Shown here: in pieces, positions 2,020 to 6,250 of the stretch | Numbering within the stretch: position 1 is the stretch's first letter | Layout of the letters: each line of letters begins with the position of its first letter | Source: a virus | Lineage: Duplodnaviria; Heunggongvirae; Uroviricota; Caudoviricetes | Length of the DNA stretch: 6,289 nucleotides | Virus record (IMG/VR): IMGVR_UViG_2606217107_000014 | Direction: 5' to 3' (one strand) | Translations under genes and position numbers: made by a program | The notes under the pieces: generated by a model | Seen by the model: the letters and a program-made list of their open reading frames with translations, nothing else | What the model was told of the DNA's origin: nothing | Database searches by the model: none

Positions 2020-3999
2020 ATGACATTTAAACACTACGATGTGGTCAGGGCGGCGTCGCCGTCAGACCTTGCGGAGCGACTGACACAAAAACTGAAGGAG
2101 GGGTGGCAGCCATTTGGCAGCCCTGTCGCCATCACGCCTTATACCCTGATGCAGGCCATTGCGGCGGAAGGTGATGTCACCACACCTGTGGTGGTGAAGC
2201 CGTCGGATGGAGAAGGCACAGTTATCAGCACCACCAGCGAACCGGAGTATTACTTTGTTGTTGTTCTGGCGGGGCAGTCAAACTCAATGTCTTTTGGGGA
2301 AGGGCTGCCGCTGCCGGAGACATATGACCGTCCGGACCCGCGTATTAAACAGCTGGCGCGTCGCAGTACGGTGACGCCGGGTGGTGCCGCCTGTAAATAT
2401 AACGACATCATTCCGGCAGACCACTGTCTGCATGATGTGCAGGATATGAGTAACCTGAATCATCCTCATGCAGACCTGAGTAAGGGACAGTACGGTTGTG
2501 TGGGGCATGCTCTGCATGTTGCCAAAAAGCTGCTGCCGTTTATGCCTGCGAATGCGGGTATCCTTCTTGTTCCATGTGGCCGTGGCGATTCGGGATTTAC
2601 TGCGGGGGCCGAGGGGGCGTTTAACGAAGCGTCGGGAGCGACCGCAGGCTCGTCCCTGTGGGGGGCGGATAAACCGCTGTATCATGACCTGGTCAGCAGA
2701 ACCCGTGCGGCCCTGAAGAAAAATCCGAAGAACGTGCTGTTATCAGTGATCTGGATGCAGGGAGAAAAAGATGTCAGTTCGGGGAGACATGCAGAACACA
2801 ATGCGCTTTTCCTTGCCATGGTAAATCAGTTCCGTACGGAACTGGCAGATGTGGCAGAGCAGTGTACTGGCGGGACAACGGCCAGCGTCCCGTGGATTTG
2901 CGGTGATACCACGTACTACTGGAAGGAAAGGTATGCAGCGCCGTATGAGGCGGTTTACGGTGGGTATAAAGGCAAAGCTGCGCAGAATATTCACTTTGTG
3001 CCGTTGATGACGGATGAGCATGGTGTGAATGTGCCGACAAACGAGCCGTCAGAAGATCCGGACATTATCCCGGCGGGATACTATGGCGCTGCGTCACGCA
3101 CTGCCAGTAACTGGACGTCAGCCAATCGTAAAACGCACTTCAGTTCATGGGCGCGAAGAGGCCTTGTTTCAGACCGTCTGGCAGGTGCCATTTTGCAGTA
3201 CGCCGGGCGGACATTATCGTTCCTTACCGGGCAGAGCGCACCGCTGTCGGGTGGTACAACTCCTGTCAGTCCGGGGACACCGGATGTTGAGAAACCGCAG
3301 GATGGCGGTGTTGCTGGTACTGGTCATGATGAGGCCGTGAGCAGTACCAGGACGGTGGCTGAATATGATGCGAACAGTGGAAATGGTGTATGGACAGAGC
3401 AGCAGTGGGGGGCTGCCGGTGGCAAAGGCACTGTGACTGATGACGGTGGACGGAAAGCGCTGCGACTGGAAAAACAGCCCGGTAAACTGACGTCCTGGAA
3501 AATGTTCCGTACTGTTGCAGTGGAGGAGGCAAAAAATCTTCTCAGCAAGGGGGGTGAAATTGCCGTACGGTTCAAAATTCCGGATGGAAGCGAACTGGTG
3601 AACGGACAGTTTGTCTTTGGTCTCTACTGGCCGGTGTCGCAGTGGGCGTCAGGCGCGGCAGCAAACAGTATGCTGGCATCATTCTTCCTTCAGACGGATG
3701 CATCAAATCTGAATCTTATGCACCACAAGGGCACGTCGAATGCACAACTGGGCACATTTGGTGCGTTTGACCATAACTGGCATACGGTTGTTTTCCGCTT
3801 TGCGGGAAATAACAGCGAAAGAGTCGTTCCGGTGATTGATGGTGCAGAGCAGACGGCGTTTGACCTTGTGATGTGGACAAATGATGGCTTTACAGCAGAT
3901 ACGCTGACGCTGACAGATATCACGGGGGCAAAAGCGACGTATCCTGTACTGCTTGATACGGTCACTGTCAAAGTGAAAGAAAGCGAAGCAGCGGCATAA
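2020..3999 (+). CDS. nanS-p: Prophage sialate O-acetylesterase (NanS-p-like; N-terminal DUF1737-like region, SASA/SGNH esterase domain, long C-terminal domain of unknown function)
   Basis: 659-aa ORF with GGAGG (2011-2015) 4 nt before the ATG. Contains GQSN (in VLAGQSNSMSFGEG), WMQGEKD and THF motifs that I associate with the SASA family. Position and N-terminus (MTFKHYDVV...) match my recollection of the esterase just downstream of stx in Stx phages (933W L0105). Recalled, not searched. Confidence 0.75.
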   Translation: MTFKHYDVVRAASPSDLAERLTQKLKEGWQPFGSPVAITPYTLMQAIAAEGDVTTPVVVKPSDGEGTVISTTSEPEYYFVVVLAGQSNSMSFGEGLPLPETYDRPDPRIKQLARRSTVTPGGAACKYNDIIPADHCLHDVQDMSNLNHPHADLSKGQYGCVGHALHVAKKLLPFMPANAGILLVPCGRGDSGFTAGAEGAFNEASGATAGSSLWGADKPLYHDLVSRTRAALKKNPKNVLLSVIWMQGEKDVSSGRHAEHNALFLAMVNQFRTELADVAEQCTGGTTASVPWICGDTTYYWKERYAAPYEAVYGGYKGKAAQNIHFVPLMTDEHGVNVPTNEPSEDPDIIPAGYYGAASRTASNWTSANRKTHFSSWARRGLVSDRLAGAILQYAGRTLSFLTGQSAPLSGGTTPVSPGTPDVEKPQDGGVAGTGHDEAVSSTRTVAEYDANSGNGVWTEQQWGAAGGKGTVTDDGGRKALRLEKQPGKLTSWKMFRTVAVEEAKNLLSKGGEIAVRFKIPDGSELVNGQFVFGLYWPVSQWASGAAANSMLASFFLQTDASNLNLMHHKGTSNAQLGTFGAFDHNWHTVVFRFAGNNSERVVPVIDGAEQTAFDLVMWTNDGFTADTLTLTDITGAKATYPVLLDTVTVKVKESEAAA

Positions 4000-4146: not shown

Positions 4147-4341
4147 ATGACGTTAGTTCATCAGTTCATGCTGTACTTCTGTACGGCGGTATGCGTGCTG
4201 TATCTTCTTTCGGGTGGGTACAGGGCAGTGCGCGATTTCTGGCGCAGGCAGATTGATAAAAGGGCCGCAGAGAAAATCAGCGCCAGTCAGTCAGCCGGAG
4301 CAAAAACAGAAGCCCCACTCATTCCGGAACAACCTTCTTAA
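4147..4341 (+). CDS. Small membrane protein (64 aa) of the lysis-proximal region, function unknown
   Basis: ORF with one clear hydrophobic segment (FMLYFCTAVCVLYLL) followed by a basic stretch (RAVRDFWRRQIDKR). Weak SD. Position is typical for small late-region proteins in lambdoid prophages. Confidence 0.45.
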   Translation: MTLVHQFMLYFCTAVCVLYLLSGGYRAVRDFWRRQIDKRAAEKISASQSAGAKTEAPLIPEQPS

Positions 4342-4366
4342 TAACCCCTTTCAACGAGAAAATCCT

Positions 4367-4657
4367 ATGTCAGAAATAAAATCGCTGGTCACTGCTGAGG
4401 CAGTGAAGGAAGTCCTGCGCTCTGAAGAAGTCCGGAGCGCACTGAAACAGCAACTTCGGCAGAACCTTGAGGCGCGTCTTGATGCAGAAGTGGATGCCAT
4501 TCTGGATGAATTGCTTGGTGCACAGCCGGAACCATCCCCGGAACTGCTTCCGGAACCACAGGCGGAAGATGTCACCACGGAAAATGGTGATATTCAGCCG
4601 GAGCCACCGGTGACGGATATGACAGACACACAACCCGAACCGGGCACAATGCTGTAA
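4367..4657 (+). CDS. Acidic hypothetical protein (96 aa) with Pro/Glu-rich C-terminal tail
   Basis: I place the start at ATG 4367 (MSEIKSLV...) rather than the ORF-track start at 4214, because 4214-4341 overlaps the upstream ORF in another frame and that extension is low-complexity. The C-terminus carries repeated PEP motifs (PEPS, PEPQ, PEPP, PEPG). Confidence 0.5.
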   Translation: MSEIKSLVTAEAVKEVLRSEEVRSALKQQLRQNLEARLDAEVDAILDELLGAQPEPSPELLPEPQAEDVTTENGDIQPEPPVTDMTDTQPEPGTML

Positions 4658-4668
4658 CGGCGGGGCAG

Positions 4669-4704
4669 GGCCATCAGTAAAGAGCTGGTGGCCCTTTTGT
4701 TGTT
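4669..4704 (+). terminator. Strong rho-independent terminator upstream of the holin gene
   Basis: GGGCCATCAG (4669-4678), 7-nt loop, CTGGTGGCCC (4686-4695; 10 bp with one G-U), then TTTTGTTGTTGT. Confidence 0.6.
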
Positions 4705-4732: not shown

Positions 4733-4948
4733 ATGTACCAGATGGAAAAAATCACAACAGGTGTGTCATACACCACGTCAGCGGTGGGAACGGGCTACTG
4801 GTTCCTGCAGTTGCTGGACAGGGTTTCCCCGTCTCAGTGGGCGGCAATAGGCGTGCTGGGGAGTCTGTTGTTTGGGCTGCTGACATATCTGACTAACCTG
4901 TATTTCAAAATCAGAGAGGACCGTCGTAAGGCGGCGCGGGGAGAGTAA
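4733..4948 (+). CDS. S: Class II holin (pinholin, phage-21 S-type) with dual-start motif
   Basis: 71 aa; Met1 and Met4 (MYQMEK...) give the antiholin/holin dual start; a weakly hydrophobic Gly/Ala/Ser-rich first segment ([18 protein letters not shown]) and a second hydrophobic segment ([18 protein letters not shown]); charged C-terminal tail [17 protein letters not shown] lies 8 nt upstream. Matches my recollection of S21. Confidence 0.85.
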
Positions 4949-4952
4949 AGCG

Positions 4953-5483
4953 ATGAAGAAAAAATACGAACTGGTTGTTAAAGGGATAAATAATTACCCG
5001 AATAAGATTACTGTTACTGTGGCACTGGAAATTGGTGGGTATCCGTCACTGTTGTTGCCAGATGTGGCGATTAGTCTTGACCGTACTGAAGATGCCACGC
5101 TGGAGTTTTACGAAGCTGAGGCGAAAAAGCAGGCGAAGCAGTTTTTCATGGATGTTGCTGCCGGGTTATGTGAAGGGAACGAACCGTTGCCGGAAAAGCG
5201 CCCCGTAATTTTAGAGGCGCAGGATGTGTTGATAACCTACAGAGGAAAACTACCGGGAATAATTACTGGTTCTCTGAAGACGCCACCGACGGCATTGCGG
5301 TCAGAAAACGATGATATTGAATCACGCATTGAAAAACTGGAGTGCTATATCGCTGAATTGAAAAAAAGCACCCCAACAAAAAATGAGGTGCTTGCAGCAG
5401 ATGAAATGAAAGAAACTATTCTTGATCGCGCGGCGCATCTAAGCTGCGCTTCACTGTTGAAAGAGCATCTTCAGCAGCCTTGA
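4953..5483 (+). CDS. Hypothetical protein (176 aa) inserted between holin and endolysin; function unknown
   Basis: ATG 4 nt after the S stop codon, with a GGGGAGAG SD lying inside the S 3' end. No transmembrane segment; C-terminal third is charged and likely helical. Sampled 60-nt stretches are visibly more AT-rich than nanS-p or R. Confidence 0.55.
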   Translation: MKKKYELVVKGINNYPNKITVTVALEIGGYPSLLLPDVAISLDRTEDATLEFYEAEAKKQAKQFFMDVAAGLCEGNEPLPEKRPVILEAQDVLITYRGKLPGIITGSLKTPPTALRSENDDIESRIEKLECYIAELKKSTPTKNEVLAADEMKETILDRAAHLSCASLLKEHLQQP

Positions 5484-5628
5484 GGAATCTTTTATCATCA
5501 CGAGCAACTGTCTTTGGTATTTCTTTAATTAGATGTTCCATTTCGGCGATCAGGTAATCTGACACAGCGTTATTTTTACTTAGTGCATCCATTGCTTTGA
5601 TTATCTTTGCGAGGCAGCCATCTCGCAT
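5416..5628 (-). CDS. Possible small helical protein (70 aa from ATG at 5628; ORF track extends to a GTG at 5655)
   Basis: Convergent to the 176-aa ORF and overlapping its last 68 nt. Amino-acid composition looks protein-like (K/E/A/L/D-rich). No clear SD. A perfect palindrome sits immediately upstream of the ATG on the minus strand. Confidence 0.3.
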   Translation of the reverse strand: MRDGCLAKIIKAMDALSKNNAVSDYLIAEMEHLIKEIPKTVARDDKRFLKAAEDALSTVKRSLDAPRDQE

Positions 5629-5639
5629 TGTTGAGTTTA

Positions 5640-5660
5640 CGCCAGTGCCCACCACTGGCG
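5640..5660. repeat. Perfect 8-bp inverted repeat with 5-nt spacer (CGCCAGTG-cccac-CACTGGCG)
   Basis: Read directly from the sequence. Not followed by a T-tract on either strand, so not a classical terminator; candidate operator or RNA hairpin. Confidence 0.5.
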
Positions 5661-5716
5661 GGCTGAAGACTTAACATATCCAGGGATTCGGAACCGATAA
5701 ATCCTGATAAATATCC

Positions 5717-6250
5717 ATGAGCGCAAAAATCAGATACGGCCTGTCAGCTGCTGTTCTGGCGCTGATTGCTGCAGGCGCGTCTGCTCCTCAGATACTTGAC
5801 CAGTTTCTGGACGAAAAAGAGGGTAACCACACAACGGCATACCGTGATGGTGCAGGTATCTGGACCATCTGCCGTGGTGCCATCATGGTGGATGGCAAAC
5901 CTGTCGTTCCGGGCATGAAGTTGTCGAAGGAAAAATGCGACCAGGTTAACGCCATTGAGCGTGATAAAGCGCTGGCGTGGGTGGAGAAAAACATCAGAGT
6001 GCCGCTGACCGAACCCCAGAAAGCGGGGATCGCGTCATTCTGTCCGTACAACATTGGTCCCGGTAAGTGTTTCCCGTCGACGTTTTATAAACGAATTAAT
6101 GCAGGCGATCGCAGGGGGGCGTGTGAGGCGATTCGCTGGTGGATTAAGGACGGTGGCAGAGACTGCCGTATTCGCTCAAACAACTGTTACGGTCAGGTAT
6201 CCCGTCGCGACCAGGAGAGTGCGCTGGCGTGCTGGGGAATTGACAGATAA
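5717..6250 (+). CDS. R: SAR endolysin (T4-lysozyme-like muramidase with N-terminal signal-arrest-release segment)
   Basis: 177 aa; N-terminal Gly/Ala-rich weakly hydrophobic segment (GLSAAVLALIAAGASAP) and E35-D44-T50 with the 9/6 spacing of the T4 lysozyme catalytic triad. Same length as the lysozymes I recall from Qin (rrrQ) and 933W. No SD within 12 nt of the ATG. Confidence 0.85.
   Translation: MSAKIRYGLSAAVLALIAAGASAPQILDQFLDEKEGNHTTAYRDGAGIWTICRGAIMVDGKPVVPGMKLSKEKCDQVNAIERDKALAWVEKNIRVPLTEPQKAGIASFCPYNIGPGKCFPSTFYKRINAGDRRGACEAIRWWIKDGGRDCRIRSNNCYGQVSRRDQESALACWGIDR

Follow-up and report, generated by a model that had tools for sequence, protein, structure and literature searches.

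A three-part mosaic spacer with a YdfR-family gene and a variable module between holin and lysozyme of a lambdoid Escherichia coli prophage

The DNA that separates the holin gene from the lysozyme gene in a lambdoid, Stx-phage-like E. coli prophage is a composite of three parts: the core and linker of a ydfR-family gene (4953-5288), a variable module (5289-5653) and the leader of the lysozyme gene R (5654-5716). We identified these parts in a viral record of 6,289 nt (IMG/VR IMGVR_UViG_2606217107_000014), hereafter the window, which represents the late region of the prophage. In the reading that we favour and hold to be reasonably probable, the ydfR-family core supplies a late protein that contacts RNase E, the module behind it has been swapped in, and R is preceded by a leader lacking a Shine-Dalgarno (SD) sequence. 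The extra material in the spacer, including an antisense gene that is very probably dead, is ordinary phage mosaicism.

A spacer in a phage 21-type lysis cassette

The window begins with a DNA methylase fragment, followed by three tRNAs, two copies of the sRNA STnc100, a nanS-p/SASA esterase gene (2020-3999), and a DUF1378 and then a DUF826 gene. After these comes the S21-type class II holin gene S of the pinholin family (4733-4948, plus strand, 71 aa), assigned by Pfam PF04971 Phage_holin_2_1 (E 9e-33) and by PHROG holin families. The 176-aa ORF of the YdfR/DUF1327 family, consisting of core, linker and fused coiled-coil tail, occupies 4953-5483 on the plus strand, and a mechanical ORF of 79 aa lies opposite and downstream (5416-5655, minus strand). 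The R21/RrrD-type lysozyme gene R (5717-6250, plus strand; Pfam PF00959) carries an N-terminal Gly/Ala-rich, SAR-like segment. From the S stop at 4948 to the R ATG at 5717 the spacer measures 768 nt, and the gap of about 0.75 kb between pinholin and SAR endolysin reported in a preliminary description of this DNA had been placed correctly.

Both flanking genes are of the phage 21 type. The holin profile is that of 'Bacteriophage P21 holin S', and the lysozyme aligns with the R21 structure (PDB 3hde, E 5.4e-16) and with RrrD (4zpu, E 1.1e-15) from residue 12, that is, from the N-terminal hydrophobic segment on. This segment (LSAAVLALIAAGASAPQIL) is weakly hydrophobic (maximum Kyte-Doolittle value 1.78, residues 9-27) and Gly/Ala-rich, and is predicted to be SAR-like. 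Unlike in the S21/R21 cassette of phage 21, S and R are neither adjacent nor translationally coupled here, being parted by 768 nt that hold ydfR and the module, with no SD and no coupling ORF before R.

The spacer (4949-5716) has a GC content of 44.5%, compared with 53.7% for S, 54.3% for R and 54.6% for nanS-p, and is lowest in GC at 5484-5640 (38.9%). The contrast between an AT-rich insert and its flanks is therefore real, although smaller than hand counts had indicated (32-48% against 55-62%); 4.9% of all 768-nt stretches in the 6.3-kb sequence equal the spacer in AT-richness. The view of the spacer as an optional, more AT-rich addition to an S21/R21 cassette gains support from phage records, where DUF1327 is present in 101 against 434 with an S21-type holin (101/434), indicating that ydfR is optional in such cassettes. 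The order holin-ydfR-lysozyme is common to Qin, PhiR5_1, phage 86, Stx1a and Stx2 phages and the IMG/VR loci.

The ydfR-family core and its putative contact with RNase E

The 176-aa ORF belongs to a common and already known family. The YdfR/DUF1327 profile (Pfam PF07041) matches aa 1-112 of the window protein over profile positions 1-92 of 93, with 152.5 bits (cutoff 25) and E 3.8e-45, while phrog_2091 matches the ORF over its full length (E 4.7e-81). The preliminary description had recognised no motif in this protein, which has to be corrected, since the family is catalogued in Pfam as DUF1327 and such genes are named 'YdfR family protein' in RefSeq and phage records. Its guess at an extended ydfR relative was right, given the Pfam match and, in the alignment to K-12 YdfR that it had proposed, 47% identity over aa 1-74 with no relationship beyond. 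The family is narrow but abundant: clustering of 1.84 billion proteins at 50% leaves 101 representatives, and DNA of its core is found in 3159 of 5426 complete E. coli genomes (58%), at 6735 places and up to 8 times per genome.

The 282 homologues, ranging from 103 to 305 aa, have the core in common and vary in their tails. Shared by family members are a core spanning roughly aa 1-74 and, behind it, a linker whose end reads ...ITGSLKTPP (aa 112); the window encodes both at 4953-5288 on the plus strand. The core comprises three strands and a helix that retains the LEFYEA motif at its start, the columns L50, E51, F52, Y53 and E54 being invariant in the family. AF2 models of the window protein reach pLDDT values of 67-88 for aa 1-70 and fall below 50 for aa 73-120, where the linker is disordered. 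Stand-alone representatives of 72-76 aa align to profile positions 1-72, and the window protein possesses the same compact N-terminal domain of about 72 residues. The core protein is conserved, with its invariant motifs, between alleles of about 55-65% identity, indicating that YdfR is under selection. The absence of a transmembrane segment from the 176-aa protein, claimed earlier, agrees with our scan (maximum Kyte-Doolittle(19) = 1.18), and the protein is acidic (pI 5.2).

The window gene shares several traits with ydfR of the Qin prophage (b1555, P76160), including membership of PF07041, a site flanked by an S21-type holin gene (essQ in Qin) and a lysozyme gene (rrrQ in Qin), and a start coupled to the stop of the holin gene by the same SD and 4-nt spacing; the N-terminal 74 residues at which the two proteins are alike correspond to the region for which RNase E binding is reported. 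The last 30 of the 103 residues of Qin YdfR are unrelated to the window protein, which, unlike it, has the conserved linker and a 64-aa coiled-coil tail. Qin ydfR also overlaps rrrQ by ATGA and is thereby coupled on both sides, whereas the window ORF stops 233 nt upstream of R with an antisense remnant in between.

For K-12 YdfR, residues 1-72 give bacterial two-hybrid signals with Rne (RNase E) and Rng (RNase G), Strep-YdfR co-purifies Rne 1-598 (the catalytic domain) together with DNase-resistant nucleic acid, RNA is pulled down, and few transcripts are altered upon overproduction of the protein (PMC13232886). By analogy, the most likely role of the window homologue would be that of a late-expressed, cytoplasmic accessory protein contacting RNase E. 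Late-operon transcripts would include the core, and its translation would start by way of the SD and 4-nt junction where S ends, yielding a soluble, acidic, cytoplasmic protein whose N-domain of about 72 residues may contact the catalytic half of RNase E and perhaps RNA. From the contact reported in K-12 it would follow that YdfR modulates late RNA processing or decay, not membrane lysis itself, and any consequence of the window protein for lysis is a presumed one. Against this reading, RNase E binding is known for the K-12 homologue only, whose overproduction altered few transcripts, and a pI of 5.2 is atypical for RNA binders. A MIC screen lists ydfR as a candidate streptomycin survival gene.

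Phage proteins that modulate RNase E include T7 gp0.7, T4 Srd and phiKZ Dip, all of which act early. If the K-12 result transfers, the window protein would resemble them as a small phage-borne protein contacting RNase E. It differs from them in that it bears no sequence or fold relationship to them and its gene resides in the late lysis operon, and the RNase E contact of YdfR is reported as binding, not as altered activity.

Searches for other functions gave no defence, toxin or structural match. No NCBIfam model matches the 176-aa or the 79-aa protein, and PADLOC-DB 2.0, queried at E 0.01 with the 176-aa protein, the 79-aa remnant and the antisense ORFs from the variant loci L001, L002 and L003, returned no match. 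PDB sequence searches with the family profiles returned only coiled-coil noise, and fold libraries contained nothing above noise. A literature search found nothing on a gene intervening between holin and endolysin in Stx phages.

The variable module behind ydfR

Sequence comparison places the 365-bp variable module between two CCACC microhomologies, one on the left (5283-5287) and one on the right (5649-5653). Matches of Stx2c phages to the window end at 5288. A short form of 114 aa (L004; Stx2_EH2201) equals the window minus 5289-5653, with CCACC joined directly to GCTGGC-CTGAAGAC; such short forms make up the most numerous homologue clusters and look like deletion derivatives. The sequence ACTGGCGGGCTGAAGAC (5654-5670, reading TGGLKT followed by a stop) is an imperfect repeat of ACTGGTTCTCTGAAGAC (5265-5281, TGSLKT). 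The homology of all long variants restarts at a hairpin (GCCAGTGCCCACCACTGGC, 5641-5659; arms GCCAGTG and CACTGGC around CCCAC), which marks the right edge of variability in the R-upstream sequences of loci L001-L006 and in the predicted fold.

The idea of one foreign insert with one novel gene is ruled out by the Stx2c matches that end at 5288 and by the short form that keeps 4953-5288. Contrary to the single one-gene insert first proposed, the variable cargo is confined to 5289-5653, where a coiled-coil ORF converges with a minus-strand gene that has a terminator of its own. The suggestion that the position is a recurrent site fared better, as the site is recurrently variable, carrying DUF1327 in the fraction of holin records given above and, among the variants, at least five different 3' modules after DUF1327. 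At the same joint, PhiR5_1 has a minus-strand ORF of 86 aa (phrog_2572), phage 86 one of 104 aa (phrog_1853) and Stx1a phages an unannotated one of 233 aa. Pfam searches with the antisense ORFs of other variants gave only sub-threshold noise, and the label 'DUF1823' in the PhiR5_1 annotation was rejected as a 15-bit match against a cutoff of 25. The tail and antisense module of the window itself occurs in 136 E. coli genomes, 44 of them at 80% coverage or more. In the favoured reading, the module would have been swapped in at the CCACC microhomology, joining the coiled-coil ORF in frame to ydfR and so producing the 176-aa frame.

Alignments and AF2 show that the C-terminal tail (5289-5483, plus strand) is composed of a heptad coiled coil (DDIESRIEKLECYIAELKK) and a second helix, modelled as low-confidence helices at 122-138 and 143-173. 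The coiled-coil segment SEKDDIESRIEKLE is common to many homologues, whose tails diverge beyond it. Free-standing relatives of the tail exist in Citrobacter and Salmonella prophages, supporting its interpretation as a separable coiled-coil ORF fused in frame to ydfR. In the Citrobacter prophage L007, a stand-alone 57-aa ORF (4191-4364, MTLEQRVEILERSVSGLKKS...) is convergent with an 85-aa gene and 53% identical to the window tail, with the hydrophobic heptad positions retained and the others varying. Annotated relatives of 62-63 aa are located upstream of holins in Salmonella and Citrobacter prophages; other small genes follow them downstream, convergent in the Citrobacter freundii loci. Fused to YdfR, the coiled coil may add self-association or contact with a partner.

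A different origin for the tail has been weighed, in which the sequence past codon 112 is non-functional debris of recombination. The gene would then truly encode a YdfR of about 112 residues, and the 64 extra codons would stem from chance read-through into the opposite strand of a dead moron. PGAP annotates the window-type gene as a truncated pseudogene, and the pN/pS of the tail (about 0.5, alike in the other frames, with too few substitutions) gives no sign of protein-level selection. Tail codons 138-147 (5366-5393) are the reverse complement of the antisense gene's terminator, and codons 155-176 with the stop (5416-5483) overlap the 3' end of that gene. The predominance of the 114-aa forms also fits such an origin. 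Against it, copies with about 10% divergence (L011, L013) keep a frame of exactly 176 codons open, the coiled-coil segment recurs in many otherwise different tails, and a homologous ORF is open as a separate gene of 51-63 aa in three other contexts with its heptad hydrophobics conserved. We therefore regard the debris origin as unlikely and retain the fused, separable ORF as the better description.

The minus strand of the module holds the remnant of a gene for a 91-aa helical protein (phrog_18136; 5416-5609), of which codons 29-91 and the stop are left. The remnant matches phrog_18136 with E 5e-41, and the intact form, found as WP_021565043.1 in E. coli G1/2 (L006) with an AGGA SD and an ATG, does so with E 4e-52. 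A three-way DNA alignment with E. coli G1/2 and S1-CAM-02-A revealed that the window and S1-CAM-02-A share a 100-bp deletion between copies of the 9-bp repeat TTATCTTTG, one of which remains as the deletion scar (5601-5609). The lost DNA held the SD, the ATG and codons 1-28, including the family-invariant motif FDRIFTLE, and for this reason the gene is very probably dead in the window; a 70-aa product from an ATG at 5628 may be made. The 79-aa ORF consists of this remnant extended upstream to a GTG start. It was rejected as an intact gene, because the N-terminus, SD and ATG of intact relatives all fall within the deleted 100 bp. Of 15 E. coli-type IMG/VR loci, 5 show the same 5' loss, as do many RefSeq genomes.

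The gene has an intrinsic terminator of its own (5366-5393, minus strand), with a 10-bp stem and a U7 tail, located by pattern scan and RNAfold (-15.5 kcal/mol, z -3.5) 23 nt past the stop. The E. coli, Citrobacter and IMG/VR contexts all conserve this terminator; 96% of the cells are paired, and in two base pairs both partners have changed. Most of the family's 32 protein clusters come from E. coli, members from Citrobacter and metagenomes showing 66-72% identity, and in copies about 10% diverged its pN/pS is 0.10-0.20 in its own frame and at least 0.4 in the other frames, on small counts. A promoter scan found no sigma-70 consensus match upstream of the gene, in the window or in the intact copy in E. 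coli G1/2; E. coli and Citrobacter have conserved the DNA upstream of it. AF2 modelled the intact 91-aa protein as a low-confidence helical bundle (pLDDT 63), too poor for a structure search. The minus-strand remnant (5416-5655), the terminator hairpin and the separate histories of the mosaic parts had all gone unnoticed in the preliminary description.

The minus-strand gene is found without ydfR in the Citrobacter prophage L007, upstream of the holin, and in unrelated phage contexts (L008, L033-L038), which marks it as an autonomous unit antisense to the late operon. It would have the layout of a moron, being read from its own strand with late transcription running against it. Like lambdoid morons such as lambda bor, the 91-aa gene family lies opposite to the late operon, has its own intrinsic terminator and a lower GC content, and is polymorphic in both presence and position. 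Unlike them, the window copy is 5'-deleted, and so has a terminator without an intact coding sequence, and overlaps the late-read coiled-coil ORF tail to tail, and the promoter scan was negative.

These features bear on the notion that the variable 3' module is cargo of benefit to the host, expressed in lysogeny (exclusion, defence or toxin-antitoxin-like), with the ydfR-R junction as a hotspot and the window copy inactivated. That the module can be present, absent or replaced, the joint having at least four unrelated antisense ORFs among its variants, is in keeping with this notion, as are the lowest GC of the region (38.9%), the gene's own terminator, its bor-like orientation against the late operon and its movement between contexts. 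On the other side, the antisense ORFs have no PADLOC, Pfam or NCBIfam match, the promoter scan was negative, AF2 gave only the low-confidence bundle, and the window copy has neither start nor conserved N-terminus. Moreover, the deleted form is itself widespread, arguing against a strongly selected function of the gene. We consider host-benefit cargo rather improbable.

An extension of this idea would make the 3' joint of ydfR (...ITGSLKTPP / CCACC) a dedicated recombination hotspot that exchanges small, lysogeny-expressed antisense genes, each placed tail to tail with a coiled-coil ORF on the late strand. The antisense gene would be shut off by late transcription, and its product or mRNA would be the target of the coiled-coil peptide, either on its own or attached to the RNase E-binding domain of YdfR. 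If true, this would constitute an undescribed convergent two-gene switch tying lysis-cassette expression to RNA decay, and we give it a decidedly low probability. Ordinary mosaicism behind a conserved ydfR core remains our preferred account, and the modular dissection and the recurrent joint are in themselves modestly interesting.

Initiation of the lysozyme gene and significance of the spacer

The end of S reads GGGGAGAG, TAA, 4 nt and then the ATG of the 176-aa ORF. The first of these elements is an SD within the 3' end of S (4938-4945, plus strand) that serves the ydfR-family ORF here, in accordance with the tight coupling of this ORF to the S stop described earlier. In Stx2_EH1846 (L009), which has no insert, the identical GGGGAGAG-TAA-4 nt-ATG junction goes directly into R, so that R begins 4 nt after S; the 176-aa ORF thus occupies the junction that serves R in ydfR-less cassettes. 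The essQ-ydfR junction of Qin resembles the one found here.

R itself had been noted to have no SD near its ATG, and indeed no SD-like purine run is present in the 25 nt before it (aaccgataaatcctgataaatatcc). Coupling to an upstream ORF is likewise absent: no upstream ORF ends at the ATGA of the R start, and the frame ending there has no start codon. The leader (5654-5716, plus strand) is AU-rich and SD-less, and near-identical in all DUF1327-bearing variants compared; its predicted fold is no more stable than that of shuffled sequence (z -1.1). R would initiate independently, and probably weakly, from this leader.

This arrangement gives rise to the main rival of the RNase E reading, a cis effect on the S:R ratio. 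Here the spacer would act as a lysis-timing device in which the SD-less leader lowers or delays the SAR endolysin relative to the pinholin, with the YdfR protein playing a minor part. Such an effect would account for an R gene that has no SD or coupling ORF and for a 76-nt leader that is nearly invariant despite differing upstream modules, and it gains from the comparison with ydfR-less cassettes, which couple R directly to S, and with Qin, where the ATGA overlap couples ydfR to rrrQ. The unremarkable stability of the leader speaks against it, as does the conservation of the YdfR core and its invariant motifs across divergent alleles, which indicates selection on the protein. On balance we think a cis timing device unlikely, and keep a late protein contacting RNase E as the favoured reading.

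The findings leave the understanding of lysis cassettes unchanged. For annotation, two separable units are joined in the 176-aa ORF, and the minus-strand 79-aa ORF is a deletion remnant. The YdfR family matters by its reach, its genes lying in prophage lysis cassettes of over half of the complete E. coli genomes, with many Stx1a and Stx2c phages among the carriers. If the reported contact with RNase E holds for the homologues, lambdoid phages would carry an overlooked late modulator of RNA decay.

tRNAs, sRNAs and small genes upstream of the holin gene

Three consecutive tRNA genes, Met-CAT, Arg-TCG and Arg-TCT, are located at 799-1048 of the window; in Stx phages, this trio typically precedes stx. 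Beyond them, two tandem copies of the STnc100 sRNA family (Rfam RF02076) were detected at 1182-1390 and 1586-1798, with scores of 122 and 140 bits, respectively. Both copies lie within an AT-rich stretch bordered by the tRNAs on one side and nanS-p on the other, which is the position of stx in Stx phages; no stx gene is present in the window. Between nanS-p and the holin gene S, the region 4147-4657 contains DUF1378 and DUF826, both of them small, conserved and functionally uncharacterised genes. The DUF1378 protein has a membrane-like N-terminus, and that of DUF826 an acidic, proline-rich C-terminus. A terminator-like hairpin (4667-4695) immediately precedes S.

Annotation of YdfR-family loci

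In two RefSeq loci, the PGAP annotation of the 176-aa ORF ends after codon 114 (L005 6254-6595 and L006 3254-3595) and flags it as a pseudogene "missing C-terminus", probably because the reference YdfR proteins are 268-305-aa forms. In the Stx1a-converting phage Stx1_14040 (L003), an unannotated candidate ORF of 233 aa is found on the minus strand (2754-3455), overlapping in antisense the 3' 250 nt of an annotated 263-aa YdfR-family ORF; searches of Pfam, PHROG and PADLOC returned no match for this candidate.

The linker motif and the R leader

Stand-alone coiled-coil proteins of 62-63 aa from Salmonella and Citrobacter (P0160-P0163) terminate in EKITGSLRAPVKL, a motif shared with the YdfR linker GRITGSLKTPP (window 5265-5288), directly before the fusion joint. 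The shared motif may mark a joint created by recombination, or the peptide itself may be functional.

Within the leader of the lysozyme gene R, the piece CTGAAGACTTAACATATCCAGGG (window 5664-5690) is homologous, on the opposite strand, to positions 3905-3945 of a Citrobacter prophage locus (L007), upstream of its 85-aa gene. Retention of this piece in the short 114-aa ydfR forms suggests that they are deletion derivatives of the long forms rather than their ancestors.
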